NCBI RefSeq assembly: GCF_036365525.1
Contig: NC_090373.1
Location: 13,073,935-13,137,934 of the forward strand
Length of the DNA stretch: 64,000 bases
Direction: 5' to 3'
DNA from: Heterodontus francisci
Lineage: Eukaryota
Shown here: piece by piece, positions 709-43,873 of the stretch
Layout of the letters: every line of letters starts with the position of its first letter
Numbering within the stretch: the stretch's first letter is position 1
Program-made: the position numbers and the translations under genes
The notes under the pieces: model-generated
The model's input: only the letters and a program-made list of their open reading frames with translations
Told to the model about the DNA's origin: nothing
Database searches by the model: none

Positions 709-711
709 AAA

Positions 712-3908: not shown

Positions 3909-4300
3909 TGATCAGCACCTTAAACATTCACTCCCTCCACCACTTACAGTGACAGCAGTGTGTACCATCTACAAGATGCACTGCAGCAACTCGCCAAGGC
4001 TCCTTCAACAGAACCTTCCAAACCTGTGACCTCTACCACCGAGAGGACAACGATAACAGATTCATGGGAACACCACCTGCAAGTTCTCCTCCAAGCCCCA
4101 CACCATCCTAATTTCACTGTCACTGGATTAGAATCCTGGAACTCATTCCCTAACAGCACTGTGGGTGTACCTACATCACATGGACTGCAGTGGTTCAAGA
4201 AGGCAACTCACCACCACCTTCTCAAGGGCAATTAGAGATGGGCAATGAATGCTGGCCTAACTAGGGGCGCTCTCATCCCATGAATGAATATTTTTCAAAA
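3909..4300 (+). mobile_element. 3' fragment of family A LINE
   Basis: SWNSFPNSTVGVPTSHGLQWFKKATHHHLLKGN* followed by the family tail CCCATGAATGAAT. Confidence 0.85.
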
Positions 4301-11815: not shown

Positions 11816-11842
11816 AGATTTCCATTGTTTTTCGTGTAAGGG

Positions 11843-12170
11843 GATACAGTAGGGTAGTGGTAATGTTACTGGACTAGTAATGCAAAGGCCTGGACTAATG
11901 ATACAGAGATGTGAGTTCAAGCCCCACCACGGCAACTGGGGAATTTAAATTCAATTAACCAAATAAAAGCTGAAATTAAAAACTAGTATGAGTAATAGTG
12001 AGCATAAAAATACCAAATTGTTGTAAAAACGCATCGCTTTCGCTAATGTCCTTTAGGAAAGGAATTCTGCCATTCCTACCAGCTCTGGCCCATATGTGAC
12101 TCCAGCAATGTGGTTGGTTGACTCTTAAATAGCCACTCTGTTGTATTTAAGATGGCAGCTCACCTCTTCA
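11843..12170 (+). mobile_element. tRNA-derived SINE sharing its head with family A LINE
   Basis: GTAGTGGTAATG A box, GAGTTCAAGCC B box, core CTAATGTCCTTTAGGAAAGGAATTCTGCC...GTGACTCCAG, then LINE-like AAGATGGCAGCTCACC. Confidence 0.8.
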
Positions 12171-12499: not shown

Positions 12500-14020
12500 G
12501 TGTGCAGGTGACAAGCAGTGTGTGGAGATTCAAGTTGGGCGAGTGGCGAATTTGGTGAGTGGCGAGTCCGGTGAAGGGGGAGGAGGTGCTCCATTTTTCC
12601 TTTTTCTACGTTTTTAACCCTCCAGTATTTGGTTCTTGCTTCGGTGCAGTGGAAGGAGCTGTTTGGTGAGTACCTGGTAAGCTATTCTACTTATAAATAG
12701 TCTGTAAAGTTAAAGTATGGCAGGGCAGCTCTGCTGAGTGGAATGTACAGCCTGTGGCATGTGAGAAGTCATGGAAGCACCATGCGTCCTGGACAAAGAC
12801 ATCTGCAGGGAGTGTCACCAGTTGCAAATGCTTGAGCTCCGGGTTTTGGAACTCGAGCGGCAGCTGAAGTCACTGTTGTGTCTCTGCGAGGCAGAGAACT
12901 ACATGGATAGCACGTTTAGGGAGGTGGTCAGATAGATGCAGGCAGATAGAAAATGGGTGATCACCAGGCAGGTAGTGCAGGAGTCCCCTGACATGATCTC
13001 ACTCGCTAATCGATTTTACATTTGGATACTGGTGAGGGTGAGGGTTCCTCAGAGGAGTGCAGTCAGAGCCACGTTTGTGGCACCACAGGTGGCTCAACTG
13101 CACAGGAGGGGAGGAAGAGGAGTGGAAGAGCAGTACTGATAGAAAATTCATTAGTTAGGGAAACAGTCAAGCGTTTCTGCGGCAGTAAACGTGACTCCAG
13201 GATGGTGTGTTGCCTCCCTGGTGTCAGGGTCAAGGATGTCACGGAGTGGCTGCAGGACATTCTTCTGGGGGAGGGTGAACAGCCAGAGGTCGTTATCCAC
13301 ATTGGTACCAATGACTTAGGTAAGAAGGGGGATGAGGTCCTGAAAGCAGATTTTAGGGAGCTAGGAAGAAGATTAAAAAGCAGGACCTCAAATCCCACGT
13401 GCAAGTGAGCATAGGAATAGGAGAATTGAGCAATTGAACATGTGGCTGGAGGACTGGTGTAGGGAGGGAGGGCATCAGATTTCTGAGACATTGGAACCGG
13501 TTCTGGGGCAGGTGGGATCTGTACAAGAGGGACGGGTTGAATCTTAGCAGGACTGGGACGAATATCCTTGCAGGGAGATTTGCTAGTGCTGTTGGGGAGG
13601 GTTTAAACTAAATTGTCAGGGGGATGGGAAACTGAGAGGGAACTCAGATTGGAGGGAAGCAAAACTGGTAACTAGTCAGGGCTGAGGGAACCAGGAGCAA
13701 GTATTAGAGAGGAATACCAAGGTGCACAGAATAGACAGCACGAGAGTAGGGAATAGTACTTTATTAGGTGGGGTCAGAGTCAGGGATAAAGTAATAAAGT
13801 CTGAATCAGAGTTACTGTGCATGTATGCGAATGCACGGAGTGTGGTTAATAAGACTGTTGAGGTACAGGCACAGATTGCCTTGTGGAAATATGTTGTGGC
13901 TGTAACAGAGCCCTGGCTCAAAAAAGGGCAGGATTGCGTGTTAAATCTTCCTGGATATAAGGTGTTCATGAAAGAGGAAAGGGGAAAAAGGGGGGGGGGG
14001 GGGGGGTGGCGGTATTGATT
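12500..14020 (+). mobile_element. CR1 LINE 5' portion: ORF1 (zinc finger, coiled coil, SGNH esterase) and start of ORF2 APE; decayed
   Basis: From about 12717: ECTACGM...ICRECHQLQMLELRVLELERQL; esterase motifs VCCLPGVRVKDV and VVIHIGTNDLG; APE start LLCMYANARSVVNK...AVTEPWL. Confidence 0.85.
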
Positions 14021-14342
14021 AAGGATTGGAGAATGGGAGATTGCAGTATGGGGGGGTGGGGCAAAAATTTCAATGGCAGTATTATACCAGAGATCTTCTG
14101 TTTGTCAAAAAAAAAATCAAAACAGTTGAGCAGGAGACGTCCAAGAAATTATACAAATGAAACAATGGCAGGAGGGAGCGGGGGGTACTGTTGGTGGGAG
14201 GTAGCGATGGCAACCTTTGAGAGAATTTTCGGGTTGAAGTTGTTTTCTGCGATAAATTTAGCAGCACCATCTTTAATCCTGGCAGCTGCCTGAACATCGC
14301 AGACAGTGACATTTCAGTGGAAGAGGCTGCATTTGTGCATGT

Positions 14343-14368
14343 GCTAGTACTGCGCCACCTAGTGGCTG
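14343..14368 (-). promoter_or_regulatory. Candidate CTCF binding site
   Basis: GCGCCACCTAGTGGC at 14352-14366 (reverse complement GCCACTAGGTGGCGC) matches the canonical CTCF core; adjacent TGCTAGTAC resembles the CTCF auxiliary motif. Confidence 0.55.
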
Positions 14369-14479
14369 GTTTGTCAGCAAACAGCCAAGAAATAATATCA
14401 GATCACATGACTACAGTTATAATTTGACCTATGTTGATATAATGTGTTTGGTTCCTGCACACTAATCCCTACCCCCACC

Positions 14480-14811
14480 CCGCTTCCCAACCTTTTGCTC
14501 AGGCTGAACCTTCAGTGTCCTGTTTTGACCCTAAGCTGAGCTTCAGAATCCTGCATCTGATTCATGACCAACACAATCAGTTTCTACTTCTAAGTGTAGC
14601 TTTCCTCTGTCTCTGATATTTTGCTAATGCTGCTCAAATGATAATCCACACCATTGTTGGCTTTCTTAATGCTCTTTTCTGGGCTCCCCTTCCTCTACTC
14701 AATACAAACACCATTTCGTTCAGAGCTCTGCTTCTGCATTAAGTCCTACTTACCTATGATCCTTGTCTGCACTAACCTCCAGGGCCTTCTCGTTCCCCAA
14801 TGTATTGATTG
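14480..14811 (+). mobile_element. Old L2 fragment, left half of a host element that resumes at about 27362-27545
   Basis: ...GTTCCCCAATGTATTGATT resumes as CAATTCTCATACATTTATAAATCC, in the same order as in the L2 at 32620-32680. Confidence 0.5.
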
Positions 14812-17800
14812 CACAGCAACTTGTATTCATGTGGCGCCTTTAATGTCATCAAAGGCACTCCATGAGAGTGTTATCAGAGAAAATTTGAGACAAAGCCACA
14901 AAAGGAGACAGATGACCAACAACTTGGTCGAAGAAGTAGGTTTTAAGGAGCATCTTAATGGAGGAAGTAGAGAGATGGAGAGGTTCAGGGAGGAGGTAGA
15001 GAGGGAGAGGTTCAGGGAGGAGGTAGAGAGGGAGAGATTCAGGAAGGAGGTAGAGAGAGAGAGAGGTTCAGGGAGGAGGTAGAGAGGGAGAGATTCAGGA
15101 AGGAGGTAGAGAGAGAGAGAGGTTCAGGGAGGAGGTGGAGAGAGAGAGAGGTTCAGGGAGGAGTTAGAGAGAGAGAGGTTCAGGGAGGAGGTAAAGAGAG
15201 AGAGATGTTCAGGGAGGAGGTAGAGAGAGAGAGATGTTCAGGGAGGAGGTAGAGNNNNNNNNNNNNNNNNNNNNNNNNNNNNNNNNNNNNNNNNNNNNNN
15301 NNNNNNNNNNNNNNNNNNNNNNNNNNNNNNNNNNNNNNNNNNNNNNNNNNNNNNNNNNNNNNNNNNNNNNNNNNNNNNNNNNAGAGAGAGAGAGGTTCAG
15401 GGAGGAGGTAGAGAGANNNNNNNNNNNNNNNNNNNNNNNNNNNNNNNNNNNNNNNNNNNNNNNNNNNNNNNNNNNNNNNNNNNNNNNNNNNNNNNNNNNN
15501 NNNNNNNNNNNNNNNNNNNNNNNNNNNNNNNNNNNNNNNNNNNNNNNNNNNNNNNNNNNNNNNNNNNNNNNNNNNNNNNNNNNNNNNNNNNNNNNNNNNN
15601 NNNNNNNNNNNNNNNNNNNNNNNNNNNNNNNNNNNNNNNNNNNNNNNNNNNNNNNNNNNNNNNNNNNNNNNNNNNNNNNNNNNNNNNNNNNNNNNNNNNN
15701 NNNNNNNNNNNNNNNNNNNNNNNNNNNNNNNNNNNNNNNNNNNNNNNNNNNNNNNNNNNNNNNNNNNNNNNNNNNNNNNNNNNNNNNNNNAGAGAGAGGT
15801 TCAGGGAGGAGGTAGAGAGAGAGAGAGAGGTTCAGGGAGGAGGTAGAGAGAGAGAAAGAGAGAGAGGTTCAGGGAGGAGGTAGAGAGAGAAAGAGAGAGA
15901 GGTTCAGGGAGGAGGTGGAGAGAGAGAGAGAGAGAGGTTCAGTGAGGAGGTGGAGAGAGAGAGGTTCAGGGAGGAGGTAGAGAGAGAGAGAGAGAGGTTC
16001 AGGGAGGAGATAGGGAGGAGGTAGAGAGAGAGAGAGGGAGGAGGTAGAGAGAGAGGGGGGGTTCAGGGAGGAGGTAGAGAGAGAGGTTAAGGAAGGAGGT
16101 AGAGAGAGAGAGAGAGGTGTTCAGGGCGGCGGTAGAGAGAGAGAGAGAGGTTCAGGGAGGAGGTGGAGAGAGAGAGGTTCAGGGAGGAGGTGGAGAGAGA
16201 GAGGTTCAGGGAGGAGGTGGAGAGAGAGGTTCAGGGAGGAGGTGGAGAGAGAGAGAGAGGTTCAGGGAGGAGGTGGAGAGAGAGAGAGAGGCTCAGGGAG
16301 GAGGTGGAGAGAGAGAGAGGTTCAGGGAGGAGGTGGAGAGAGAGAGAGGTTCAGGGAGGAGGTGGAGAGAGAGAGAGGTTCAGGGAGGAGGTGGAGAGAG
16401 AGAGAGAGAGTTTCAGGGAGGAGGTGGAGAGAGAGAGAGAGGTTCAGGGAGGAGGTGGAGAGAGAGAGAGAGAGGTTCAGGGAGGAGGTGGGGAGAGAGA
16501 GAGAGAGAGAGGTTCAGTGAGGAGGTGGAGAGGGAGAGATTCAGGAAGGAGGTAGAGAGAGAGAGAGGTTCAGGGAGGAGGTGGAGAGAGAGAGAGAGAG
16601 AGAGAGGTTCAGGGAGGAGTTAGAGAGAGAGAGGTTCAGGGAGGAGGTAAAGAGAGAGAGATGTTCAGGGAGGAGGTAGAGAGAGAGAGATGTTCATGGA
16701 GGAGGTAGAGAGAGGGAGGTTCAGGGAGGAGGTAGAGAGAGGGAGGTTCAGGGAGGAGGTAGAGAGAGGGAGGTTCAGGGAGGAGGTAGAGAGAGAGAGA
16801 GGTTCAGGGAGGAGGTGGGGAGAGAGAGAGAGGGAGAGATTCAGGAAGGAGGTAGAGAGAGAGAGAGGTTCAGGGAGGAGGTAGAGAGGGAGAGATTCAG
16901 GAAGGAGGTAGAGAGAGAGAGAGGTTCAGGGAGGAGGTGGAGAGAGAGAGAGGTTCAGGGAGGAGTTAGAGAGAGAGAGGTTCAGGGAGGAGGTAAAGAG
17001 AGAGAGATGTTCAGGGAGGAGGTAGAGAGAGAGAGATGTTCAGGGAGGAGGTAGAGNNNNNNNNNNNNNNNNNNNNNNNNNNNNNNNNNNNNNNNNNNNN
17101 NNNNNNNNNNNNNNNNNNNNNNNNNNNNNNNNNNNNNNNNNNNNNNNNNNNNNNNNNNNNNNNNNNNNNNNNNNNNNNNNNNNNAGAGAGAGAGAGGTTC
17201 AGGGAGGAGGTAGAGAGANNNNNNNNNNNNNNNNNNNNNNNNNNNNNNNNNNNNNNNNNNNNNNNNNNNNNNNNNNNNNNNNNNNNNNNNNNNNNNNNNN
17301 NNNNNNNNNNNNNNNNNNNNNNNNNNNNNNNNNNNNNNNNNNNNNNNNNNNNNNNNNNNNNNNNNNNNNNNNNNNNNNNNNNNNNNNNNNNNNNNNNNNN
17401 NNNNNNNNNNNNNNNNNNNNNNNNNNNNNNNNNNNNNNNNNNNNNNNNNNNNNNNNNNNNNNNNNNNNNNNNNNNNNNNNNNNNNNNNNNNNNNNNNNNN
17501 NNNNNNNNNNNNNNNNNNNNNNNNNNNNNNNNNNNNNNNNNNNNNNNNNNNNNNNNNNNNNNNNNNNNNNNNNNNNNNNNNNNNNNNNNNNNNNNNNNAG
17601 AGAGAGGTTCAGGGAGGAGGTAGAGAGAGAGAGAGAGGTTCAGGGAGGAGGTAGAGAGAGAGAAAGAGAGAGAGGTTCAGGGAGGAGGTAGAGAGAGAAA
17701 GAGAGAGAGGTTCAGGGAGGAGGTGGAGAGAGAGAGAGAGAGAGGTTCAGTGAGGAGGTGGAGAGAGAGAGGTTCAGGGAGGAGGTAGAGAGAGAGAGAG

Positions 17801-20800
17801 AGAGGTTCAGGGAGGAGATAGGGAGGAGGTAGAGAGAGAGAGAGGGAGGAGGTAGAGAGAGAGGGGGGGTTCAGGGAGGAGGTAGAGAGAGAGGTTAAGG
17901 AAGGAGGTAGAGAGAGAGAGAGAGGTGTTCAGGGCGGCGGTAGAGAGAGAGAGAGAGGTTCAGGGAGGAGGTGGAGAGAGAGAGGTTCAGGGAGGAGGTG
18001 GAGAGAGAGAGGTTCAGGGAGGAGGTGGAGAGAGAGGTTCAGGGAGGAGGTGGAGAGAGAGAGAGAGGTTCAGGGAGGAGGTGGAGAGAGAGAGAGAGGC
18101 TCAGGGAGGAGGTGGAGAGAGAGAGAGGTTCAGGGAGGAGGTGGAGAGAGAGAGAGGTTCAGGGAGGAGGTGGAGAGAGAGAGAGGTTCAGGGAGGAGGT
18201 GGAGAGAGAGAGAGAGAGTTTCAGGGAGGAGGTGGAGAGAGAGAGAGAGGTTCAGGGAGGAGGTGGAGAGAGAGAGAGAGAGGTTCAGGGAGGAGGTGGG
18301 GAGAGAGAGAGAGAGAGAGGTTCAGTGAGGAGGTGGAGAGGGAGAGATTCAGGAAGGAGGTAGAGAGAGAGAGAGGTTCAGGGAGGAGGTGGAGAGAGAG
18401 AGAGAGAGAGAGAGGTTCAGGGAGGAGTTAGAGAGAGAGAGGTTCAGGGAGGAGGTAAAGAGAGAGAGATGTTCAGGGAGGAGGTAGAGAGAGAGAGATG
18501 TTCATGGAGGAGGTAGAGAGAGGGAGGTTCAGGGAGGAGGTAGAGAGAGGGAGGTTCAGGGAGGAGGTAGAGAGAGGGAGGTTCAGGGAGGAGGTAGAGA
18601 GAGAGAGAGGTTCAGGGAGGAGGTGGGGAGAGAGAGAGAGGGAGAGATTCAGGAAGGAGGTAGAGAGAGAGAGAGGTTCAGGAAGGAGGTAGAGAGAGAG
18701 AGAGGTTCAGGGAGGAGGTGGAGAGAGAGAGAGAGAGAGAGGTTCAGGGAGGAGTTAGAGAGAGAGAGGTTCAGGGAGGAGGTAAAGAGAGAGAGATGTT
18801 CAGGGAGGAGGTAGAGAGAGAGAGAGATGTTCAGGGAGGAGGTAGAGAGAGAGGGGGAGGTTCAGGGAGGAGGTAGAGAGAGAGAGAGGTTCAGGGAGGA
18901 GGTAGAGAGAGAGAGGTTCAGGGAGGAGGTAGAGAGAGAGAGGTTCAGGGAGGAGGTAGAGAGAAAGAGAGAGAGGTTCAGGGAGGAGGTAGAGAGAGAG
19001 GTTCAGGGAGGAGGTAGAGNNNNNNNNNNNNNNNNNNNNNNNNNNNNNNNNNNNNNNNNNNNNNNNNNNNNNNNNNNNNNNNNNNNNNNNNNNNNNNNNN
19101 NNNNNNNNNNNNNNNNNNNNNNNNNNNNNNNNNNNNNNNNNNNNNNNNNNNNNNNNNNNNNNNNNNNNNNNNNNNNNNNNNNNNNNNNNNNNNNNNNNNN
19201 NNNNNNNNNNNNNNNNNNNNNNNNNNNNNNNNNNNNNNNNNNNNNNNNNNNNNNNNNNNNNNNNNNNNNNNNNNNNNNNNNNNNNNNNNNNNNNNNNNNN
19301 NNNNNNNNNNNNNNNNNNNNNNNNNNNNNNNNNNNNNNNNNNNNNNNNNNNNNNNNNNNNNNNNNNNNNNNNNNNNNNNNNNNNNNNNNNNNNNNNNNNN
19401 NNNNNNNNNNNNNNNNNNNNNNNNNNNNNNNNNNNNNNNNNNNNNNNNNNNNNNNNNNNNNNNNNNNNNNNNNNNNNNNNNNNNNNNAGNNNNNNNNNNN
19501 NNNNNNNNNNNNNNNNNNNNNNNNNNNNNNNNNNNNNNNNNNNNNNNNNNNNNNNNNNNNNNNNNNNNNNNNNNNNNNNNNNNNNNNNNNNNNNNNNNNN
19601 NNNNNNNNNNNNNNNNNNNNNNNNNNNNNNNNNNNNNNNNNNNNNNNNNNNNNNNNNNNNNNNNNNNNNNNNNNNNNNNNNNNNNNNNNNNNNNNNNNNN
19701 NAGAGAGATAGAGAGGTTCAGGGAGGAGGTAGAGAGAGAGAGAGAGAGAGAGGTTCAGGGAGGAGGTAGAGAGAGAGAGAGAGAGGTTCAGGGAGGAGGT
19801 AGAGAGAGAGAGGTTCAGGGAGGAGGTAGAGAGAGAGAGGTTCAGGGAGGAGGTAGAGAGAGAGAGAGAGAGAGGTTCAGGGAGGAGGTAGAGAGAGAGA
19901 GAGAGAGGTTCAGGGAGGAGGTAGAGNNNNNNNNNNNNNNNNNNNNNNNNNNNNNNNNNNNNNNNNNNNNNNNNNNNNNNNNNNNNNNNNNNNNNNNNNN
20001 NNNNNNNNNNNNNNNNNNNNNNNNNNNNNNNNNNNNNNNNNNNNNNNNNNNNNNNNNNNNAGAGAGAAAGAGAGAGAGGTTCAGGGAGGAGGTGGAGAGA
20101 GAGAGAGAGAGAGGTTCAGTGAGGAGGTGGAGAGAGAGAGGTTCAGGGAGGAGGTAGAGAGAGAGAGAGAGAGGTTCAGGGAGGAGATAGGGAGGAGGTA
20201 GAGAGAGAGAGAGGGAGGAGGTAGAGAGAGAGGGGGGGTTCAGGGAGGAGGTAGAGAGAGAGGTTAAGGAAGGAGGTAGAGAGAGAGAGAGAGGTGTTCA
20301 GGGCGGCGGTAGAGAGAGAGAGAGAGGTTCAGGGAGGAGGTGGAGAGAGAGAGGTTCAGGGAGGAGGTGGAGAGAGAGGTTCAGGGAGGAGGTGGAGAGA
20401 GAGAGAGAGGTTCAGGGAGGAGGTGGAGAGAGAGAGAGAGGCTCAGGGAGGAGGTGGAGAGAGAGAGAGAGGCTCAGGGAGGAGGTGGAGAGAGAGAGAG
20501 GTTCAGGGAGGAGGTGGAGAGAGATGTTCAGGGAGGAGGTGGAGAGAGAGAGAGGTTCAGGGAGGAGGTGGAGAGAGAGAGAGGTTCAGGGAGGAGGTGG
20601 AGAGAGAGAGAGAGAGTTTCAGGGAGGAGGTGGAGAGAGAGAGAGAGGTTCAGGGAGGAGGTGGAGAGAGAGAGAGAGGTTCAGGGAGGAGGTGGGGAGA
20701 GAGAGAGAGAGAGAGGTTCAGTGAGGAGGTGGAGAGGGAGAGATTCAGGAAGGAGGTAGAGAGAGAGAGAGGTTCAGGGAGGAGGTGGAGAGAGAGAGAG

Positions 20801-23800
20801 AGAGAGGTTCAGGGAGGAGTTAGAGAGAGAGAGGTTCAGGGAGGAGGTAAAGAGAGAGAGATGTTCAGGGAGGAGGTAGAGAGAGAGAGATGTTCAGGGA
20901 GGAGGTAGAGAGAGGGAGGTTCAGGGAGGAGGTAGAGAGAGGGAGGTTCAGGGAGGAGGTAGAGAGAGGGAGGTTCAGGGAGGAGGTAGAGAGAGAGAGA
21001 GGTTCAGGGAGGAGGTGGGGAGAGAGAGAGAGGGAGAGATTCAGGGAGGAGGTAGAGAGAGAGAGGGAGGTTCAGGGAGGAGGTAGAGAGAGAGAGAGGT
21101 TCAGGGAGGAGGTAGAGAGAGAGAGAGAGAGGTTCAGGGAGGAGGTAGAGAGAGAGAGGTTCAGGGAGGAGGTAGAGAGAAAGAGAGAGAGGTTCAGGGA
21201 GGAGGTAGAGAGAGAGGTTCAGGGAGGAGGTAGAGAGAGATAGGTTCAGGGAGGAGGTAGAGAGAGAGAGAGAGGTTCAGGGAGGAGGTAGAGAGAGAGA
21301 GAGAGGTTCAGGGAGGAGGTAGAGAGAGAGAGAGAGGTTCAGGGAGGAGGGAGAGAGAGAGAGAGGTTCAGGGAGGAGGTAGAGAGAGGTTCAGGGAGGA
21401 GGTAGAGAGAGAAAGAGAGAGAGGTTCAGGGAGGAGGTAGAGAGAGAGAGAGAGAGAGGTTCAGTGAGGAGGTAGAGAGAAAGAGAGAGAGGTTCAGGGA
21501 GGAGGTAGAGAGAGAGGTTCAGGGAGGAGGTAGAGAGAGATAGGTTCAGGGAGGAGGTAGAGAGAGAGAGAGAGGTTCAGGGAGGAGGTAGAGAGAGAGA
21601 GAGAGGTTCAGGGAGGAGGGAGAGAGAGAGAGAGGTTCAGGGAGGAGGTAGAGAGAGGTTCAGGGAGGAGGTAGAGAGAGAAAGAGAGAGAGGTTCAGGG
21701 AGGAGGTAGAGAGAGAGAGAGAGAGAGGTTCAGTGAGGAGGTAGAGAGAGAGAGGTTCAGGGAGGAGGTAGAGAGAGAGAGAGAGAGGTTCAGGGAGGAG
21801 GTAGAGAGAGAGAGAGAGGTTCAGGGAGGAGATAGAGAGAGAGGTTCAGGGAGGAGATAGAGAGAGAGGTTCAGGGAGGAGGTAGAGAGAGAGAGAGGTT
21901 CAGGGAGGAGAGAGAGAGAGGGGGGGTTCAGGGAGGAGGTAGAGAGAGAGAGGTTAAGGAAGGAGGTAGAGAGAGAGAGAGAGGTGTTCAGGGCGGCGGT
22001 AGAGAGAGAGAGAGAGGTTCAGGGAGGAGGTGGAGAGAGAGAGGTTCAGGGAGGAGGTGGAGAGAGAGAGGTTCAGGGAGGAGGTGGAGAGAGAGGTTCA
22101 GGGAGGAGGTGGAGAGAGAGAGAGAGGTTCAGGGAGGAGGTGGAGAGAGAGAGAGAGGTTCAGGGAGGAGGTGGAGAGAGAGAGGTTCAGGGAGGAGGTG
22201 GAGAGAGAGAGGTTCAGGGAGGAGGTGGAGAGAGAGAGAGGTTCAGGGAGGAGGTGGAGAGAGAGAGAGAGAGTTTCAGGGAGGAGGTGGAGAGAGAGAG
22301 AGAGGTTCAGGGAGGAGGTGGAGAGAGAGAGAGAGAGAGGTTCAGGGAGGAGGTAGAGAGAGAGAGAGAGGTTCAGGGAGGAGGTGGAGAGGGAGAGATT
22401 CAGGAAGGAGGTAGAGAGAGAGAGAGGTTCAGGGAGGAGGTGGAGAGAGAGAGAGAGAGAGGTTCAGGGAGGAGGTAAAGAGAGAGAGATGTTCAGGGAG
22501 GAGGTAGAGAGAGAGAGAGATGTTCAGGGAGGAGGTAGAGAGAGGGAGGTTCAGGGAGGAGGTAGAGAGAGGGAGGTTCAGGGAGGAGGTAGAGAGAGGG
22601 AGGTTCAGGGAGGAGGTAGAGAGAGAGAGAGAGGTTCAGGGAGGAGGTAGAGAGAGAGAGAGAGGTTCAGGGAGGAGGTTGAGAGAGAGAGGTTCAGGGA
22701 GGAGGTGGAGAGAGAGGTTCAGGGAGGAGGTGGAGAGAGAGAGAGAGGTTCAGGGAGGAGGTGGAGAGAGAGAGAGAGAGGTTCAGGGAGGAGGTGGAGA
22801 GAGAGAGAGAGAGGTTCAGGGAGGAGGTGGAGAGAGAGAGAGAGGTTCAGGGAGGAGGTGGAGAGAGAGAGAGAGAGGTTCAGGGAGGAGGTGGAGAGAG
22901 AGAGAGAGAGGTTCAGGGAGGAGGTGGAGAGAGAGAGAGAGAGGTTCAGGGAGGATGTGGAGAGAGAGAGAGAGAAGTTCAGGGAGGAGGTGGAGAGAGA
23001 GAGAGAGAGGTTCAGGGAGGAGGTGGAGAGAGAGAGAGAGAGAGAGGTTCAGGGAGGAGGTGGAGAGAGAGAGAGAGAGGTTCAGGGAGGAGGTGGAGAG
23101 AGAGAGAGAGGTTCAGGGAGGAGGTGGAGAGAGAGAGAGAGAGAGGTTCAGGGAGGAGGTGGAGAGAGAGAGAGGTTCAGGGAGGAGGTGGAGAGAGAGA
23201 GAGAGAGGTTCAGGGAGGAGGTGCAGAGAGAGAGAGAGGTTCAGGGAGGAGGTGGAGAGAGAGAGAGAGAGGTTCAGGGAGGAGGTGGAGAGAGAGAGAG
23301 AGAGAGGTTCAGGGAGGAGGTGGAGACAGAGAGAGAGAGGTTCAGGGAGGAGGTGGAGACAGAGAGAGAGAGGTTCAGGGAGGAGGTGGAGACAGAGAGA
23401 GAGAGGTTCAGGGAGGAGGTGCAGAGAGAGAGAGAGGTTCAGGGAGGAGGTGCAGAGAGAGAGAGAGGTTCAGGGAGGAGGTGGAGAGAGAGAGAGGTTC
23501 AGGGAGGAGGTGGAGAGAGAGAGAGTGAGGGGTTTATGGAGGAGGTGGAGAGAGAGAGAGGGGTTCAGGGAGGAGGTAGAGAGAGAGGTTCAGGGAGGAG
23601 GTAGAGAGAGAGGTTCAGGGAGGAGGTAGAGAGAGAGGTTCAGAGAGGAGGTGGAGAGAGAGAGAGAGGTTCAGGGAGGAGGTGGAGAGAGAGAGAGAGG
23701 TTCAGGGAGGAGGTGGAGAGAGAGAGAGAGGTTCAGGGAGGAGGTGGAGAGAGAGAGAGAGGTTCAGGGAGGAGGTGGAGAGAGAGAGAGGTTCAGGGAG

Positions 23801-26800
23801 GAGGTGGAGAGAGAGAGAGAGGTTCAGGGAGGAGGTGGAGAGAGAGAGAGAGGTTCAGGGAGGAGGTGGAGAGAGAGAGAGAGGTTCAGGGAGGAGGTGG
23901 AGAGAGAGAGAGAGGTTCAGGGAGGAGGTGGAGAGAGAGAGAGAGGTTCAGGGAGGAGGTGGAGAGAGAGAGAGAAGTTCAGGGAGGAGGTGGAGAGAGA
24001 GAGCGAGGTTCAGGGAGGAGGTAGAGAGAGAGGTTCAGGGAGGAGGTGCAGAGAGAGAGAGAGGTTCAGGGAGGAGGTGGAGAGAGAGAGAGTGAGGGGT
24101 TTATGGAGGAGGTGGAGAGAGAGAGGTTCAGGGAGGAGGTGGAGAGAGAGAGAGGTTCAGGGAGGAGGTGGAGAGAGAGAGAGAGGTTCAGGGAGGAGGT
24201 GGAGAGAGAGAGAGAGGTTCAGGGAGGAGGTGGAGAGAGAGAGAGAGAGAGGTTCAGGGAGGAGGTGGAGATGGAGAGAGAGAGAGAGAGGTTCAGGGAG
24301 GAGGTGGAGAGAGAGGCGTTTAGGGAGGAGGTGGAGAGAGAGAGAGGCGTTTAGGGAGGAGGTGGAGAGAGAGAGAGGCGTTTAGGGAGGAGGTGGAGAG
24401 AGAGAGAGGTTCAGGGAGGAGGTGGAGAGAGAGAGGTTCAGGGAGGAGGTGGAGAGAGAGAGAGAGAGGTTCAGGGAGGAGGTGGAGAGAGAGAGAGAGG
24501 CGTTCAGGGAGGAGGTGGAGAGAGAGAGAGAGGTTCAGGGAGGAGGTCGAGAGAGATGGGTTCAGGGAGGAGGTGGAGAGAGAGAGGTTTCGGGAGGAGG
24601 TAGCGAGAGAGAGAAGGGTTCAGGGAGGAGGTGGAGAGAGAGAGAGAGGTTCAGGGAGGAGGTGGAGAGAGAGAGAGAGGTTCAGGGAGGAGGTGGAGGT
24701 GGAGAGAGAGAGAGAGGTTCAGGGAGGAGGTGGAGAGAAAGAGAGGGAGAGGTTCAGGGAGGAGGTGGAGAGAGAGAGAGAGAGAGGTTCAGGGAGGAGG
24801 TAGAGAGANNNNNNNNNNNNNNNNNNNNNNNNNNNNNNNNNNNNNNNNNNNNNNNNNNNNNNNNNNNNNNNNNNNNNNNNNNNNNNNNNNNNNNNNNNNN
24901 NNNNNNNNNNNNNNNNNNNNNNNNNNNNNNNNNNNNNNNNNAGAGAGGCGTTTAGGGAGGAGGAGGAGAGAGAGAGGCGTTTAGGGAGGAGGTGGAGAGA
25001 GAGAGAGAGAGGTTCAGGGAGGAGGTGGAGAGAGAGAGGTTCAGGGAGGAGGTGGAGAGAGAGAGGTTCAGGGAGGAGGTGGAGAGAGAGAGAGGTTCAG
25101 GGAGGAGGTGGAGAGAGAGAGAGAGAGGTTCAGGGAGGAGGTGGAGAGAGAGAGGCGTTTAGCGAGGAGGTGGAGAGAGAGAGAAAGGTTCAGGGAGGAG
25201 GTCGAGAGAGAGGTTTAGGGAGGAGGTAGCGAGAGAGAGAAGGGTTCAGGGAGGAGGTGGAGAGAGAGAGAGAAGGGTTCAGGGAGGAGGTGGAGAGAGA
25301 GAGAGAGAGAGGTTCAGGGAGGAGGTGGAGAGAGAGATAGAGAGAGGTTCAGGGAGGAGGTGGAGATGGAGAGAGAGAGAGGTTCAGGGAGGAGGTGGAG
25401 AGAGAGAGAGGTTCAGGGAGGAGGTGGAGAGAGAGAGAGAGAGGTTCAGGGAGGAGGTGGAGAGAGAGAGGCGTTTAGGGAGGAGGTGGAGAGAGAGAGA
25501 GAGAGGTTCAGGGAGGAGGTGGAGAGAGAGAGGCGTTTAGGGAGGAGGTGGAGAGAGAGAGAGAGGTTCAGGGAGGAGGTAGAGAGAGAGAGGTTTAGGG
25601 AGGAGGTAGCGAGAGAGAGAGGGGTTCAGGGAGGAGGTGGAGAGAGAGAGGTTTAGGGAGGAGGTAGCGAGAGAGAGGTTTAGGGAGGAGGTAGCGAGAG
25701 AGANNNNNNNNNNNNNNNNNNNNNNNNNNNNNNNNNNNNNNNNNNNNNNNNNNNNNNNNNNNNNNNNNNNNNNNNNNNNNNNNNNNNNNNNNNNNNNNNN
25801 NNNNNNNNNNNNNNNNNNNNNNNNNNNNNNNNNNNNNNNNNNNNNNNNNNNNNNNNNNNNNGGAGAGAGAGAGGCGTTTAGGGAGGAGGTGGAGAGAGAG
25901 AGAGAGAGGTTCAGGGAGGAGGTGTAGAGAGAGAGGCGTTTAGGGAGGAGGTGGAGAGAGAGAGAGAGGTTCAGGGAGGAGGTAGAGAGAGAGAGGTTTA
26001 GGGAGGAGGTAGCGAGAGAGAGAGGGCTTCAGGGAGGAGGTGGTGAGAGAGAGGTTTAGGGAGGAGGTAGCGAGAGAGANNNNNNNNNNNNNNNNNNNNN
26101 NNNNNNNNNNNNNNNNNNNNNNNNNNNNNNNNNNNNNNNNNNNNNNNNNNNNNNNNNNNNNNNNNNNNNNNNNNNNNNNNNNNNNNNNNNNNNNNNNNNN
26201 NNNNNNNNNNNNNNNNNNNNNNNNNNNNNNNNNNNNNNNNNAGATGGAGAGAGAGAGAGGTTCAGGGAGGAGGTGGAGAGTGAGAGAGGTTCAGGGAGGA
26301 GGTGGAGAGAGAGAGAGAGAGGTTCAGGGAGGAGGTGGAGAGAGAGAGGTGTTTAGGGAGGAGGTGGAGAGAGAGAGAGAGAGGTTCAGGGAGGAGGTAG
26401 AGAGAGAGAGGTTCAGGGAGGAGGTAGAGAGAGAGAGGTTTAGGGAGGAGGAAGCGAGAGAGAGAGGGGTTCAGGGAGGAGGTGGAGAGAGAGAGAGAGG
26501 TTCAGGGAGGAGGTCGAGAGAGAGAGGTTCAGGGAGGAGGTAGAGAGAGAGAGGGGTTCAGGGAGGAGGTAGAGAGAGAGAGAGGTTTAGGGAGGAGGTA
26601 GAGAGTGAGAGAGGAGGTAGAGAGAGAGAGAGTGAGTGGTTCAGGGAGGAGGTAGAGAGAGAGAGTGAGTGGTTTAGGGAGGAGGTAGAGAGAGAGAGTG
26701 AGTGGTTCAGGGAGGAGGTAGAGAGAGAGAGTGAGTGGTTCAGGGAGGAGGTAGAGAGAGAGAGTGAGTGGTTCAGGGAGGAGGTAGAGAGAGAGAGGGG

Positions 26801-27360
26801 GGTTCAGGGAGGAGGTAGAGAGAGAGAGGGGGGTTCAGGGAGGAGGTAGAGAGAGAGAGTGAGTGGTTCAGGGAGGAGGTAGAGAGAGAGAGTGAGTGGT
26901 TCAGGGAGGAGGTAGAGAGAGAGAGGGGGGTTCAGGGAGGAGGTAGAGAGAGAGAATGAGTGGTTCAGGGAGGAGATAGAGAGAGAGTGAGTGGTTCAGG
27001 GAGGAGGTAGAGAGAGAGAGGGGGGTTCAGGGAGGAGGTAGAGAGAGTGAGTGGTTCAGGGAGGAGATAGAGAGAGGGAGAGGTTCAGGGAGGGAATTCC
27101 ACAGCTTTGGGCCTGAATAGCTGAAGACACAGCAGCCAATGATGAAGCAATTAAAATCAGGGATGCACAAGAGACCAGAATTGGAGGAGCACAGACATCT
27201 GAAGACAAGGCTGAGAATTTTAAAACTGAATTGTCAAACTAGGATTGATGGCGGAACGGGACTTGGTGTGAGCATGGATAGAGGCACCAGAGTTCTTGAG
27301 CTGATATAGGGTGAAAGATGGGAGGCTATCCAGGGCAGCGTTGGAATAGTCAAGTCTCCG
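14812..27360 (-). mobile_element. L2 3' fragment interrupted by a 12 kb satellite
   Basis: L2 tail (CAACTTGTATTCATGTGGCGCCTTTAATG) at about 14817; body stops near 14990 and resumes at 27091 (AGGGAATTCCACAGCTTTGGGCC...CAAGAGACCAGAATTGGAGG), colinear with the reverse complement of the L2 at 32345-33030. Confidence 0.85.
14960..27092 (+). repeat. Polypurine compound satellite, unit GGTTCAGGGAGGAGGT(A/G)+(GA)n, about 25-37 bp
   Basis: Hundreds of tandem units seen directly; variant blocks, about 1.8 kb higher-order duplication, several N runs. Confidence 0.97.
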
Positions 27361-27804: not shown

Positions 27805-30800
27805 CCGTAGGAACAGGAGTAGGCCACTCAGTCCCTCATGCCTGTTCTGCCATTCATTGAGCTTGTGGCCAACCTGTATCTTAACTCGATTCACCCACCT
27901 TGGCTTCATATCTTTTTTTATTCATTCATGGGACGTGAGCATCGCTGGCTCGGCCAGCATTTATTGCCCTTCCCTAATTGCCCTCGAGAAGGTGGTGATG
28001 AGCCATCGCCTGGAATCGCTGCAGTCCTTGGGATGTAGGTACACCCACAGTGCTGCTAGGAAGGGAGTTCCAGGATTTTGACCCAGTGTCAGTGAAAGAA
28101 TAGCGATGTAGTTCCAAGTCAGGATGGTGTGTGGCTTGGACGGGATCTTGCAGGTGGTGGTGTTCCCATGCATCTGCTGCCTTTGTCCTTCTAAGTGGTA
28201 GAGGTTGTGGGTTTGGAAGGTGCTGTCGAAGGAGATGTGGTGAGTTACTGTAGTGCATCTTGTAGATGATACGCACTGCTGCCACTTCGTGTTGGTGGTG
28301 AAGGAATTGAATGTTGAAGATGGTGGATGGGGCGCCAATCAAGAGATCCGCTTTATCCTCAATGGTGTCGAGCTTCCTGAATGTTGTTGAAGCTGCACTC
28401 ATTCAGGCAAGTGGAGAATATTCCATCACACTCCTGACTTGTGCCTTGCAGATGGCAGACAGGCATTGGGGAGTCAGGAGGTGAGTTACTCGCCGCAGAA
28501 TTCCCAGCCTCTGACCTGCTCTTGTAGCCACAGCATTTATGTGGCTTGTTCAGTATCGGTTTCTGGTTAATGGTAACCCCCCCAGGATGGGATTCAGCGA
28601 TGGTAATGCCATTGAACATCAAGGGGAGATGGTTAGATTCTATCTTATTTGAGATGATCATTGCCTGGCACTTGTGTGGCGTGAATATTACTTGCCAATT
28701 ATCAACCCAAGCCTGAATGTTGTCGAGGTCTTGTTGCATATGGACATGGGCTGTTTCAGTATCTGAACAGTCACGAATGGTACTGAACATTGTGCAAACA
28801 TCAGCGAACATCCCCACTTCTGACCTTATGATGGAGGGAAAGTCTTTGATGAAGCAGCTGAAGATGGTTGGACCTAGGACTCCTACCTTCAGGAACTCGA
28901 ACAGTGATGTCCTGGGACTGAGATGATTGACCTCCAACAACCACAACCATCTTCCTTTGTGCTAGGTATGACTCCAGCAGCGGAAGGTTTTCTCCCTGAT
29001 TGACATTGACTCCAGTTTTGCTAGGACTCCTTGATGCCATACTCAGTCAAATGCTGCCTTGATGTCAAGGGCAGTCGCTCTCACCTCACCTCTTGAGTTC
29101 AGCTCTTTTGTCCATGTTTGAACCAAGGCTGTAATGAGGTCAGGAGCTGAGTGGCCCTGGCGGAATCCAAACTGAGCATCAGTGCACAGGTGCTGCTTGA
29201 TCGCACTGTTGATGACAGCTTCCATCACTTTACTGATGATTGAGAGTAGACTGATAGGGAGGTAATTGGCCGGGTTGGACTTGTCCTGCTCTTTGTGTAC
29301 AGGACATACCTGGGAAATTTTCCACATTGCCGGGTAGATGCCAGTGTTGCAGCTATACTGGAACAGCTTGGCTAGGGGCACGGCAAGTTCTGGAGCACAG
29401 GTCTTCAGTACTATTGCCAGAATGTTGTCGGGGCCCATAGCCTTTGCAGTATCCAGTGCCTTCAGTCGTTTCTTGATATCATGTGGAGTGAATCGGATTG
29501 GCTGAAGTCTGGCATCTGTGATACTGGGGACCTCACGAGGAGGCCAAGATGGATCATCCACTCGGCACTTCTGGCTGAAGATGGGTGCAAATACTTCAGC
29601 CTTGCTTTTGCACTGATGTGCTGGACTTCCCCCATTGTTAAGAATGGGGATATTTGTGGAGACTTCTCTTCCTGTTAGTTGCTTAATTGTTCACCATTCA
29701 CGACTGGATGTGGCAGGACTGCAGAGCTTAGATCTGATCCGTCGGTTATAGGATCAGTTAGCTCTGTCTATCGCATGCTGGTTCTGCTGTTTGGCATGCA
29801 TGTAGTTCTGGGTTGTAGTTTCACCCGGCTGACACCTCATTTTTAGGTATGCCTGGAGCTGCTCCTGGAATGCCGTCTCCTGCTGTCTTCATTGAACCAG
29901 GGTTTGTCCCCAGCTTAATGGTAATGGTAGAGTGGGGGGATATGCCAGGCCATGAGGGTTAATTCTGCTGCTGCTGATGGCCCACAACACCTCATGAATG
30001 CCCAATTTTGAGTTGCTAGATCTGTTGGAAATCTATCCCATTCAGCACGGTGGTAGTGCGACACAAATCAATGGTGGGTATCCTCAATGTGAGGACAGTT
30101 CTTCGGCTCCACAAGGACTGTGCAGTGGTCACTTCTACCAATACTGTCATGGGCAAAGGCATCTGTGACAGATTAGTGAGGACGAGGTCAAGTAGGTTTT
30201 TCCCCAATTGTTGGTTCCCTCACCACCTACCACAGACCCAGTCTGGCAGCTATGTCCTTTAGGTCTTGGCCAGTAATGGTGCTACTGAGCCACTCTTGGT
30301 GATGGACATTGAAGTGCCCCACCCAGAGTACATTCTGTGCCCTTGCTACCTTTCGTGCTTCTTCCAATTGGTATTCAACATGGAGGGACAGTAAGTGATA
30401 ATCAGCAGGAGGTTTCCTTGCCCATGTTTGGGCTGATGCCATGAGACTTTATGGGGTCCAGAATCAATTTTGAAAGCTCCCAGGGCAACTCCTCCCACCT
30501 GTATACCACTGGGCTGCCATCTCTCGTGGCTCTGTCCTTCCCGTGGGACACAACATACCCAGGGATGGTGGTCAGGGACATTGTAAGGTATTCCTTGAGT
30601 ATGGCTGTGTTAGGCTGTTGCTTGACTAGTCTGTAGGCAGTTCTCCCAATTTTGGCACAAGCCCCCAGATGTTAGTAAGAACTTTGTAGTATTGATGGAG
30701 CTGGCTGTGGCATTGTTATTTCCAGTGCCTACATCACTGCTGGGTGGTCCATCCTGTTTCATTCCTTCTATTAGGCTTTAGATGCAACTAAATGGCTTGC

Positions 30801-31755
30801 TAGGCCATTTACGATTCAACCACATTACTGTGGGTCTGGAATCACATGTAGGCCAGACCAGGTAAGGGTGGCAGATTTCCTTCCCTATAGGGCATTTGTA
30901 AACCAGATGGGTGGGTTTTTTACAACAATTGACAATGGTTTCATGATCACCACAAGACTAGCTTTTTAATTGTAGCTTAATTGATTTCAAATGTCACCAT
31001 CTGCCATAGTGGGATTCAAACCCATATTCCCAGAGCATTAGCCTAGGCTTACGGGTCCAGTGACATTACCACTACACCACAATCTCCGCCTTATTACACC
31101 CTTCTCCAGCAAAAATTTTGTGAATCTCAAATTTAAAATTATTAATTGACCTAGCATACACAGCTTTTGTGGGAGAGTTCCAGACTTCTACCACCCTTTG
31201 CATGAAGAAGTATTTCCAAACTTCTCTTTGAATGGCCTGGCTCTGATGTTAAGGTTATGTCTTCTTGTCCTGAATTCCTCTGCCAGCAGAAAAATATTCT
31301 CTGTAGCGTATCAAGTCTTTTCAAAATCCTTAACCTTCCATATTATAGGGAGTGAGTACAAGCCTAGTTTGTGATCTCGCTTCATAATTTAACCCTTGGA
31401 GCGCTGGTAACGTTCTGGTGAATCTGCACAGCAATCCTTCCAAGCCCAATATGTCCTTTCTATGTGGTGCCCAGAACTGTACACAGTGCTCCAGATGTGG
31501 TCTAACCAGGGTTTTGTATAGCTGTTGTAAGATTTCCCTTTATATTCTAGCCCTCTCGTCGTAAAGGCTAAAATTCCATGAGCATTTTTGATTTTTTGTG
31601 TGCTTGACTACTACATTTTAGTGATCTGTGTCTATGGACCTCTAAATCTCTCTGAATCCCACTGTTTCATCATTTAAATAATAAGCAGATTTTATCCTTC
31701 TTTAGTCCAAAATGGATGACCTCACGCTTGACCATCTGCCACAGTTTTGCCTACA
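27805..31755 (-). mobile_element. CR1 (HER1-like) 3' fragment split by the family A LINE (host parts 27805-27912 and 31088-31755)
   Basis: AGGAACAGGAGTAGGCC...CCTTGGCTTCATATC continues after the insertion as GCCTTATTACACCCTT...AATCTCAAATTTAAAATTATTAATTGACC, colinear with the uninterrupted copy at 61512-61920. Confidence 0.75.
27913..31087 (-). mobile_element. Apparently full-length family A LINE: tRNA-derived head, single APE-RT ORF (decayed), short tail
   Basis: Head 31087-30790 with A box TGGTGTAGTGG and B box GGTTTGAATCC; APE from about 30685 (TNIWGLVPKLGEL, VLWVGHFNVHHQEWL, NLLDLVLTN); RT (KAMGPDNI, QFGFRQGHSAPD, ALDIKAAFD, LGPTIFSCF, MFADVC); tail CCCATGAATGAATAAAAAAA. Confidence 0.9.
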
Positions 31756-31756
31756 C

Positions 31757-32340
31757 AGGCCCTAAGCTGAGGCGAATAACTCACCTCCTGACTCCCCAAA
31801 GCCTGTCCACAATCTACAAGGCACAAGTCAGGAGTGTGATGGAGTACTCTCCACTTACCTGGATGGGTGCAGCTCCAACAACACTCAAGAACCATCCAGG
31901 ACAAAGCCGCCCGCTTGATTGGCACCCCATCCACAAACATTCACTCCCTCCACCACCGACGCACAGTGGCAGCAGTGTGTACCATCTACAAGATGCACTG
32001 CGGCAACGCACCAAAGCTCCTTCGACAGCACCTTCCAAACCCACGACCTCTACCACTTAGAAGGACAAGAGAAGCAAATGCATGGGAACACCACCACCTG
32101 CAAGTTCCCCTCCAAGTCACACACCATCCTGACTTGGAACTATATCGCCGTTCCTTCACTGTCGCTGGGTCAAAATCCTGGAACTCCCTTCCTAACAACA
32201 CTGTAGGTGTACCTATCCCACATGGGCTGCAGTGGTTCAAGAAGGCAGCTCACCACCACCTTCTCAAGGGCATTTAATGATGGGCAATAAATGCTGGCCT
32301 AGCCAGTGACGCCCACATCCCATGAATGAATAAAGATAAA
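31757..32340 (+). mobile_element. 3' fragment of family A LINE
   Basis: LRRITHLLTPQSLSTIYKAQVRSVMEYSPL...FKKAAHHHLLKG plus intact tail CCCACATCCCATGAATGAATAAA. Confidence 0.9.
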
Positions 32341-32344
32341 AGCT

Positions 32345-33200
32345 CTAAGCCATCACTAAGACTGCCTATTTTCACCTCTGTAACATCGTCCAATTTCGCC
32401 CCGTCTCAGCTCTTCTGTCACTGAAATCCTTATTCATGCCCTTGTTACCTCCAGGCTTGACTATTCCAATGGTGGAATACAATCTGGCTGGTCTTCCACA
32501 TTCTACTCTGCCACATTTTACTGTCCGCAAACTTGAGATCATCCAAAACTCTGCTGCCCATGTCTTAACTCGCACCAAGTCCCATTCCCCTAACATTCCT
32601 GTGCTCACTGACCCACAATGGCTCCCAGTCAAGCAATGTCTTGATTTTAAAATACTTATCCTTGTTTTCAAACCCCTTCCTATCTCTGTAATCTCCTCCA
32701 GTCGCACAACCCTCCAAGATATCTGGGCTCCTCTAATTCTGGCCTCTTGAACGTCCTTGATTTTAATCACTCCACCATTGGTGGTCACACCTTCAGTTGA
32801 CTGGGCCCTAAGATCTGGAATACCCTCCCTAAATCTCTCTGCCTCTCCACCTCGCTTTCTTCTTTTAAGACACTCCTTAAAACCTACCTCTTTGACCAAG
32901 CTTTTGCTCTTCTGATGTAATATATCTCCTTATGTGGCTCGGTGTCATACTTTGTTTTATAATGCTCCTGTAAAGCGCCTTGGGATGTTTTACATTAAAG
33001 GCACAATATAAATATAAGTTGTTGTTGAACTTTCTCCCTAAATCTCTCCACCTCTCTACCTCTCTCTCTTCATTTAAGACTTACCTCACCTGCCCCAATA
33101 CCTCCTTTTGTGGCTTACTGTCAAATGCTGTCTAATTATGCTCCTGTGAAGTGCCTTGGGATATTTTACTATGTCGAAGTTGTTATATAAGTACAAGTTA
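32345..33200 (+). mobile_element. L2 3' end, followed by a second short L2 tail (about 33030-33200)
   Basis: LIHALVTSRLDYSN, KLEIIQNSAAHVLTRTK, WLPVKQCLDFKILILVFK; tail GTAAAGCGCCTTGGGATGTTTTACATTAAAGG...GTTGTTG. Confidence 0.9.
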
Positions 33201-42731: not shown

Positions 42732-43873
42732 TGTGGTCACGCAGTGAAGCTAAAAACATTCTTGGCTGCACTGTTTGTTTCAAATTTTATTGTGATGCAG
42801 AAAAACACATAACTCAGTTAAATAGCAAAATACAAATTAAACACTGCAGACATCAAGAAATAAGTGAACACAGAAGGTAAAGCCTGGAGACGTGTTGGTG
42901 TAGTGGTAATGTCACTGCACTAGTAATCCAGAGGCCCAGGCTAGTGCTCTGGAGACACGGGTTCAAATCGATGGTGGAATTTGAATTCAATTAATCTGGA
43001 ATTAAAAAGCTAGTCTAATGGTGACCATGTAACCATTGTCAATTGTCGAAAAACCCAAATGGTTATTAATGTCCTTTAGGGATGGAAATCTGCTGTCCTA
43101 ACCTGGTCTGGCCAACATATGACTCCAGATCCAGTTGACTCTTAGAATGCCCTCTGAAATGGCCTAGCAAGCCATTCAGTTCAAGGGCAATTAGGGATGG
43201 GCAATAAATGCTGGCCTAGCCAGTGACTCCCACATCCCATGAATGAATAAAAAAAAGTGCAAAAAGTTAAATTACATTTAATCAAAATACAAAACTTAAA
43301 CATTAATTATATTTAGATAATGGTTTCGGTGCAACAAGTCAACAGAATAAATGCTTAAATAAAATACTTACGATAGGCGATAGGAGACAAGCTGCTTTCG
43401 ATCCTTGCTCCTCGAAGCTGCCTGGACACAGGTGAGGTTGTCTTTGGTCTTTCTCAGATATCTTCTTCCAGTCTGACTTCTTTTTCTGAGAGTCTCTGTG
43501 GTTCCTGCTGTGTCTGTCTCTGCCCGTTCTGGTTTTTTAGGACCCTGCTGTTGTATCTTTTTTCCAGAGCTGCCTATGTGCCAAATTGCAAAATATGTGC
43601 AGCTTGCCCTTCCTGACCTGATAATAATTGATAATTTTTCCTAACCTGATTGGCCTTCTCCTGTCCCACCCCAGAATTAATGTCAGTCTTGCAACAGAAC
43701 TTTCATAAAACAACATCTTTAAAAACAAATCCAACAATCCTTTTAATAAAAGCCTTCTACATAAATGACATTAAACATATTTTACAGTCTTTCCAATCAA
43801 AGCATGAATTTTAAATATATTTACACCTTTTTAATCAGAATATAAATTTAGACATATTTTACGTGTTCTCACA
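42732..43873 (-). mobile_element. Possible solo LTR
   Basis: TGTG...CACA ends, near-TSD GTGC/GAGC, minus-strand AATAAA near 42788. Confidence 0.4.
42886..43256 (+). mobile_element. Complete tRNA-derived SINE made of the family A LINE head and tail
   Basis: A box TGGTGTAGTGG, B box GGTTCAAATCG; body matches the reverse complement of 30790-31087; from about 43181 matches the LINE tail (TCAAGGGCAATTAGGGATGGGCAATAAATG...GAATGAATAAAAAAAA). Confidence 0.92.

Follow-up and report, generated by a model that had tools for sequence, protein, structure and literature searches.

The window analysed here, a 64-kb stretch of Heterodontus francisci DNA (contig NC_090373.1, positions 13,073,935 to 13,137,934 of the forward strand), carries a decayed full-length copy of Zenon, a long interspersed nuclear element (LINE), at 27913–31090 on the minus strand. 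Its sequence identifies it as an elasmobranch Zenon of the CR1 group, an abundant and already catalogued family of sharks and rays. The tRNA-like head, the non-coding body, the frame for the APE endonuclease and reverse transcriptase (RT), and the tail move as one unit. Three features of this known family appear to be absent from the literature searched: a tRNA-derived promoter, the avoidance of terminators across the coding sequence, and a conserved out-of-frame start. The tRNA-derived head, the scarcity of T runs and the lack of an in-frame start together make it likely that a coding element is made by RNA polymerase III (Pol III). We suggest, with a probability of about 0.62, that the element is an autonomous LINE without ORF1, which would be transcribed by Pol III and would use a non-canonical translation start. 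Taken by itself, the claim that Pol III transcribes such a LINE seems probable to the same degree or very slightly more.

The head-APE junction across the family

A first-pass annotation, made from the sequence alone, had read a tRNA-like head, APE, RT and an A tail on the minus strand, and these parts were relocated in that order (Table 1). The "head" it placed at 31087–30790 was sound in its tRNA-like portion, but was not a single unit: it consists of a 90-nt tRNA-like part (31090–31003) and a body of 220 nt. It had also proposed that the host CR1 is colinear across the block and that head and coding body inserted together. With the element removed, the flanks aligned without a break to four other copies of the host repeat in the window and 99 loci, including 61512–61798, which indicated that the element was inserted as one unit. 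No target-site duplication was seen at the window copy; elsewhere, 8 of 51 copies had weak matches, mostly of 6 bp or related to the tail.

A query across the head-APE junction yielded 11,982 first-look candidates, of which 40 were scored. All 39 other loci scored were spanned from head to APE: 13 were complete and unbroken from the head to the tail, another 18 were complete but had insertions or deletions, and 8 were cut. The junction is therefore not a chance product unique to this locus, and the copy count that the first-pass annotation had called for came out in its favour. A second query used a piece of the RT, chosen to avoid selecting for the head; 150 of 484,348 candidates were scored. 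Of these, 60 were retrieved, namely the 20 whose open frames were longest plus the 40 that ranked best among the rest. These copies were 95–98% identical to their majority. The head was found at the identical 5′ start in 30 of the 60 (uninterrupted in 26, with an indel in between in 4), and the remaining 30 were 5′-truncated at scattered points. No two of the 60 shared any other upstream sequence, and none carried ORF1. The absence of ORF1 noted in the window copy thus holds for the family, and the finding that would have told against the chimera, full-length copies with another 5′ untranslated region (UTR) or an ORF1, did not turn up among these copies. The 5′ ends share one abrupt boundary immediately upstream of the A box, with flanks that are unrelated between copies. 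A locus-specific fusion, or a short interspersed element (SINE) nested beside a truncated LINE, was ruled out by the family-wide junction and the unbroken flanks.

The junction between body and APE was also bridged by contigs of four other organisms. Five elasmobranch Zenon consensuses of 3.24–3.31 kb, listed in Suppl. Table 2 of PMC13343379, were compared (CarCar, RhiTyp, ScyCan, SquAca and HypSab Zenon-1; Stuart et al., 2026; bioRxiv 10.64898/2026.01.13.699120). Family motifs were found in these consensuses. In their first 400 nt, the portion compared by eye, the same head, body and AUG were present in colinear order, and the A and B boxes were preserved. A more distant headed family was sought with window piece 739–1014; the matches, including one in L052, seem to belong to the present young family.

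The family head and the genome's own tRNA-Ser(AGA) gene were alike at 52 of 71 aligned positions, with an alignment score of 38 against 25–32 for the best of 500 shuffles; this isotype was the sole one compared. ARAGORN called a tRNA-Ser(AGA) gene in five of six loci, and neither ARAGORN nor Rfam made a call on the decayed head of the window copy. On a young copy, the best Rfam match was a tRNA model (22.5 bits, E 0.05), under the gathering score. Elsewhere in the genome, 53 matches to the tRNA-Ser(AGA) motif lie in a tandem array with a period of ~2.15 kb (G000:C34:12636760-12762178).

Termination signals and the translation start

Pol III stops at runs of at least four T (T4). The 3.3-kb majority sequences of both age classes contained no T4 run, and T3 runs numbered 7–8 against 41–50 for A, C and G. 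Base composition predicted 4.4 runs of T4 or longer (P 0.012 for none) and 21.9 runs of T3 or longer, of which 8 were found (P 6e-4). Runs of at least T4 occurred at 0.07 per kb in 60 young copies, 0.34 in 21 older copies and 3.9 in 36 pieces of other LINEs from the same loci. At synonymous C/T sites, T was used in 150/320, 45/142, 4/38 and 0/2 cases for resulting runs of 1, 2, 3 and 4 (Fisher 2.7e-6). The same test on the 24 of 36 control pieces with a readable frame gave 735/1079, 303/495, 136/233 and 90/151, a slight fall. Use of C or G at synonymous sites showed no comparable fall, and A fell slightly. If the control codon usage is imposed on the same protein, 5.8 T4 runs are expected, with a P of 0.001 for zero. 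This avoidance of T runs, which extends along the entire sense strand and which transcription by Pol III would demand, adds support for the use of Pol III.

Both age-class majorities have one stop-free frame of 975–977 codons, whose first Met is codon 285–291, after the APE domain. Between the old and young majorities, the ratio of non-synonymous to synonymous change (pN/pS) was 0.18 over the open reading frame (ORF) and 0.22 before the first Met (12 synonymous and 8 non-synonymous changes, P 8e-4). In other organisms, 9 of 10 differences in this stretch were synonymous, on 10 of 15 rows; a change found in the reference copy alone was left out, as were four that came mainly from one contig. 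The APE part, which lacks an in-frame AUG upstream, is under purifying selection. An RT-only protein that starts at the first Met was rejected because the APE part is under selection.

The first-pass annotation had placed the nearest upstream ATG at 30762–30760, out of frame with APE, and this was confirmed. It had confined the offset to "this copy", whereas it is a trait of the family. The AUG at 30762 is present in 72 of 80 copies, and its one-base offset is the same in 53 of the 60 copies where it was measurable; four are in frame through private indels and three are otherwise. No common indel was seen in three other organisms, and the stingray consensus, as far as its available part goes, shows the AUG at the same offset by eye. 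The view that the offset is damage was ruled out by this conservation across copies. Conservation begins sharply at the AUG, with no subfamily differences in the next 80 nt versus 14% in the preceding 35 nt. Read in the APE frame, the block encodes an Arg-rich extension, which from residue 2 onward aligns with residue 3 of the relative P0026, and the start Met of P0026 falls at the position of the AUG. Six non-CpG changes were seen in the block in other organisms; three of the six are synonymous in the APE frame and none in the AUG frame.

Several routes into the APE frame were considered. A late −1 slip at the APE border was disfavoured, since the APE-frame extension matches the N-terminus of P0026 and none of the changes is silent when read in the AUG frame. 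The A run that follows the AUG is lacking in the available part of the stingray consensus, which weakened the case for a slip there. Splicing found no candidate, there being no GT-AG joint among the joints listed. It is likely that initiation takes place at the conserved block and that the APE frame is entered early. As the way in, a frame shift downstream of the AUG and a near-cognate start codon seem about evenly balanced.

Proposed mechanism and its rivals

We propose that Pol III would start a 3.3-kb RNA at the tRNA-Ser-like head, whose internal A and B boxes would serve as its promoter, and, because no T4 terminator lies between, could continue to the A tail. The uncapped RNA would recruit ribosomes at a low rate. 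Initiation may occur at or beside the conserved AUG, with ribosomes moving into the −1 frame over the first few codons, or it may use a near-cognate codon at this site, and the predicted product is an Arg-rich N-terminus plus APE-RT. Target-primed reverse transcription is established for LINEs, and in the proposed scheme the protein would bind the 3′ end of the RNA and insert it by that route. ORF1p may not be needed, as for Pol III-made Alu RNA, which requires ORF2p alone, while the Pol II version also requires ORF1p (PMC2666806, in the part of that paper available). The Alu parallel fits but is no proof, because other Zenons also lack ORF1. Deletion of the coding middle would yield a ready SINE. 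In its widest form, the proposal is an even bet: since before their split, sharks and rays would have carried an autonomous coding retrotransposon made by Pol III end to end, with an uncapped RNA, a 975-codon APE-RT and a conserved recoding or non-AUG start.

Several points weigh against Pol III transcription and the unusual start. For zero T4 runs, a shuffle with the family's own codon usage gave a P of 0.077, and Markov models gave 0.18 (order 1) and 0.63 (order 2); these values are high because the models absorb the depletion. The controls are redundant, 28 of the 36 pieces belonging to one CR1 cluster, and have 25% T against 20% in the family. Once the published consensuses were added by eye, the block had 16 changes; ~6 of them were synonymous in the APE frame and 3 in the AUG frame, and neither count departs from the neutral expectation. 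A codon-frame test on the block gave a margin of 1.2–2.3 where 5 is typical. The fold check proposed earlier for a ribozyme or an internal ribosome entry site (IRES) in the head-APE linker came back empty: no fold between body and APE stood out (z −1.0 to +1.2), Rfam gave no IRES or ribozyme match in the 5′ region, and a pseudoknot or IRES was rejected, with two candidate helices broken without compensation and no consistent covariation. Neither an HDV-like ribozyme nor a known IRES was thus recognised. The consensus check held for the single open frame, but did not extend to an intact single copy: none of the 60 was fully intact at full length, the best frames having 941, 844 and 785 codons. 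A 3.3-kb Pol III product would be far longer than SINEs, which measure 100–700 bp according to the available part of PMC10886601. The sequencing runs examined were all contigs, most of them just presumed to derive from RNA.

Another explanation, which we regard as possible although rather unlikely, is that the head is a captured or relic 5′ end of a SINE and that the mobile RNA is made by Pol II, capped and scanned, from an internal promoter in the head or body or by read-through. Avoidance of U runs would then stem from premature polyadenylation, RT slippage or another pressure. Pol II is given as the enzyme that transcribes non-LTR elements (PMC10886601, same part), other Zenons have neither ORF1 nor a tRNA head, so that the loss of ORF1 needs no Pol III, and scanning accords well with a conserved AUG. 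Divergence between subfamilies is also greater in the tRNA part (9.6%) than in the ORF (3.4%). However, the A and B boxes were kept from sharks to a ray, the 5′ ends are sharp just before the A box, and the avoidance is specific to T and graded by run length, with a slight fall at most in the host CR1 controls; the nine AUGs upstream of the conserved AUG in the young majority are awkward for scanning. The missing in-frame AUG before APE, the scarcity of intact ORFs and the established fact that Pol III RNA is uncapped would suit a long non-autonomous passenger, a giant SINE with an untranslated ORF, whose protein came from a separate, normally started Zenon. This is highly improbable, and selection on the ORF largely refutes it: pN/pS is 0.18–0.22 between master lineages, and the frame of 975–977 codons is open in both age classes. 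In addition, no other 5′ end appeared among the 60 RT-picked copies, and the nearest non-shark relatives are just 37–40% identical.

Least probable of all, by a little, is a start at AUG-GCC-UAG with read-through of the stop into the APE frame. This motif has a strong context, and in both genome majorities its frame continues open into APE beyond the UAG. By contrast, comparison by eye of the available published consensuses showed a second in-frame stop in dogfish and a spacer of 42 rather than 46 nt in whale shark, the second stop was present in 6 of 77 copies of this genome, and no part is less conserved than the spacer, which differs by 14% between subfamilies. These observations refuted read-through as a family-wide mechanism.

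To our knowledge, the prevailing view assigns the transcription of LINEs to Pol II and confines Pol III to short non-coding RNA. If Pol III transcription is right, a natural 3.3-kb Pol III mRNA with terminator-avoiding codon choice would be a direct exception to that view, and cap-independent initiation in vertebrates could be tested on a defined 80-nt block. Such an element would dissolve the boundary between SINE and LINE, and deletion of the middle of a headed LINE would offer a simple route to the birth of SINEs. For RNA-templated insertion tools, a compact element that combines one ORF with a Pol III promoter would also be of interest. If the RNA is made by Pol II, the element would still be a SINE-headed Zenon with an unexplained start.

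The window copy, its SINE partner and known elements

The window copy is dead, with 17 frameshifting indels and 7 stops. Its stop codon lies at 27976–27974 and its A tail at 27919–27913.

Table 1. Features of the Zenon copy, its host repeat and the related SINE in the window
Feature	Position	Strand	Basis or remark
Whole element	27913..31090	-	about 90% identical to the majority of older family copies; published consensuses
tRNA-Ser(AGA)-like head	31003..31090	-	tRNA-like, 90 nt
Putative Pol III A box	31069..31079	-	in head
Putative Pol III B box	31012..31022	-	CpG-decayed in window copy
Conserved non-coding body, ~220 nt	30789..31002	-	common to the LINE and its short SINE-type derivative
AUG-GCC-UAG mini-frame	30800..30808	-	in APE frame in this genome; read-through rejected
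Conserved AUG	30760..30762	-	one base off the APE-RT frame; position of the relative's start Met
Highly conserved 81-nt block	30683..30763	-	Arg-rich N-terminal extension in APE frame
APE endonuclease domain	30100..30682	-	PF03372, PF14529, read on a near-intact copy
Reverse transcriptase domain	~28574..29294	-	PF00078
3′ end: stop codon, short UTR, A tail	27913..27986	-	part common to the SINE
Host CR1-type repeat, 5′ flank	31091..31390	-	sequence alignment
Host repeat, 3′ flank	27812..27911	-	colinear with 5′ flank
SINE: same head and body joined to same 3′ tail	42896..43255	+	sequence comparison

The SINE in the window and 10 others in the loci consist of the head and body joined to the last 70–80 nt of the LINE. 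About 6 of the 11 share one junction point, L048 and L065 have a longer tail, and the others vary; the coding middle was thus probably deleted more than once. In organisms D, E and F, loose ends often fall at the common junction. Eight of the 11 SINE heads resemble the older LINE majority. The LINE may have captured a SINE head, or the SINE may have been cut from the LINE. SINEs with the same head and body were observed at 11837–12134 (+) of the window and in L041, L075, L085, L090, L098, L026, L052, L048 and L065. We had first taken the body to be LF-SINE, a label that was dropped for want of a sequence to compare.

At least five further Zenon fragments, nested and in both orientations, lie at 2–4290 and 31767–32352 of the window. 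Many copies of different ages show a recurrent deletion of 12 nt, flanked by two short direct repeats (family nt 287–298, window 30809). In L050 (880–4101, minus strand), a 5′-truncated Zenon lies in frame inside a CR1 endonuclease and forms a chance frame of 1073 codons with two APE domains. A run of at least T4 stands just before the A tail in 7 of 43 readable tails (L050–L109), and T2–3 in seven more, which probably reflects decay of the tail after insertion. In public databases, the shark and ray gene models P0006, P0014 and P0018 contain pieces of the ORF as exons (72–85% identity), and these exons are likely annotated repeat copies. The CR1 at 12500–14020, to which the first-pass annotation had assigned an ORF1, does hold an ORF1-like piece near 13010–13405, presumably of esterase type. 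After the CR1 at 12500–14900 follows a ~12-kb GA-rich array (14960–27093) with a 27–33-bp unit, a variable GA tract and a GC skew of 0.88, partly N.

The family protein has APE and RT as its only Pfam domains. A single APE and RT ORF without ORF1, which defines Zenon, was found by Pfam on the natural copy P0001 and in the 975-codon frame, and the 3′ A tail of Zenon was seen at the 3′ ends of the copies, including the window copy. An esterase ORF1 and a microsatellite-type 3′ end, as in canonical CR1, were lacking; the element has no ORF1 and ends in an A tail. In an RT tree of 26 rows, none a labelled Zenon, the family was split from the host's canonical CR1 at 98/98 and grouped with its relatives and a lancelet protein; its RT is 33–38% identical to host CR1 pieces, and its closest non-shark relatives are 37–40% identical overall. 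RT protein is made without a standard first AUG in L1 ORF2, by re-initiation, and from the 5′ region of R2. Those RNAs are products of Pol II or Pol I, and the shark element differs further in that no ribozyme or IRES fold was found.

In the available part of PMC13343379, the shark and ray Zenon elements all lack ORF1 and have a poly-A tail; these two traits are known for Zenon and are not new here. The five consensuses agree with the element in size, absence of ORF1, A tail and the 5′ 400 nt. The main text of that paper contains no match for tRNA, polymerase III, Pol III or start codon, and leaves the origin of the head, the T-run avoidance and the missing in-frame AUG undiscussed. The autonomous SINE-LINE chimera that the first-pass annotation proposed is supported: its junction is found in the family, in four other organisms and in the five consensuses. 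The family, however, is a catalogued one with an ordinary Zenon loss of ORF1. Membership in Ingi/Vingi is unlikely because of the identity with published Zenon. The precedent of tRNA heads in Ingi/Vingi was not confirmed in the literature searched, nor did any autonomous LINE described there bear a Pol III head; Kojima 2011 (Vingi) and Repbase Reports lay outside that search, and an Ingi-type precedent is possible. Hagfish and coelacanth Zenons have no tRNA-like head in their first 400 nt, where T4 runs are present.

The lepidopteran Zenon with Persaeus (PMC6740152) and ZenoSINE (PMC6685494), judged from the parts of these sources available, share the single APE-RT ORF, the poly-A tail and short derivatives built of 5′ and 3′ ends. 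Persaeus, which contains the 5′ UTR of the lepidopteran Zenon, differs in that it lacks both a Pol III promoter and homology to tRNA (PMC6740152, same part). A similar layout is seen in tRNA-derived SINEs (SINE2), among them those with 5′ and 3′ parts of RTE or Vingi, such as SINE2-1_ACar and Bov-tA, which have a tRNA head with A and B boxes, a body and a LINE tail (PMC5786205; PMC4494074). Like these SINEs, the shark element has no internal T4. Unlike them (PMC5786205; PMC4494074), it is not short, non-coding and non-autonomous: its head is continuous, over 3.3 kb, with a 975-codon ORF under purifying selection.

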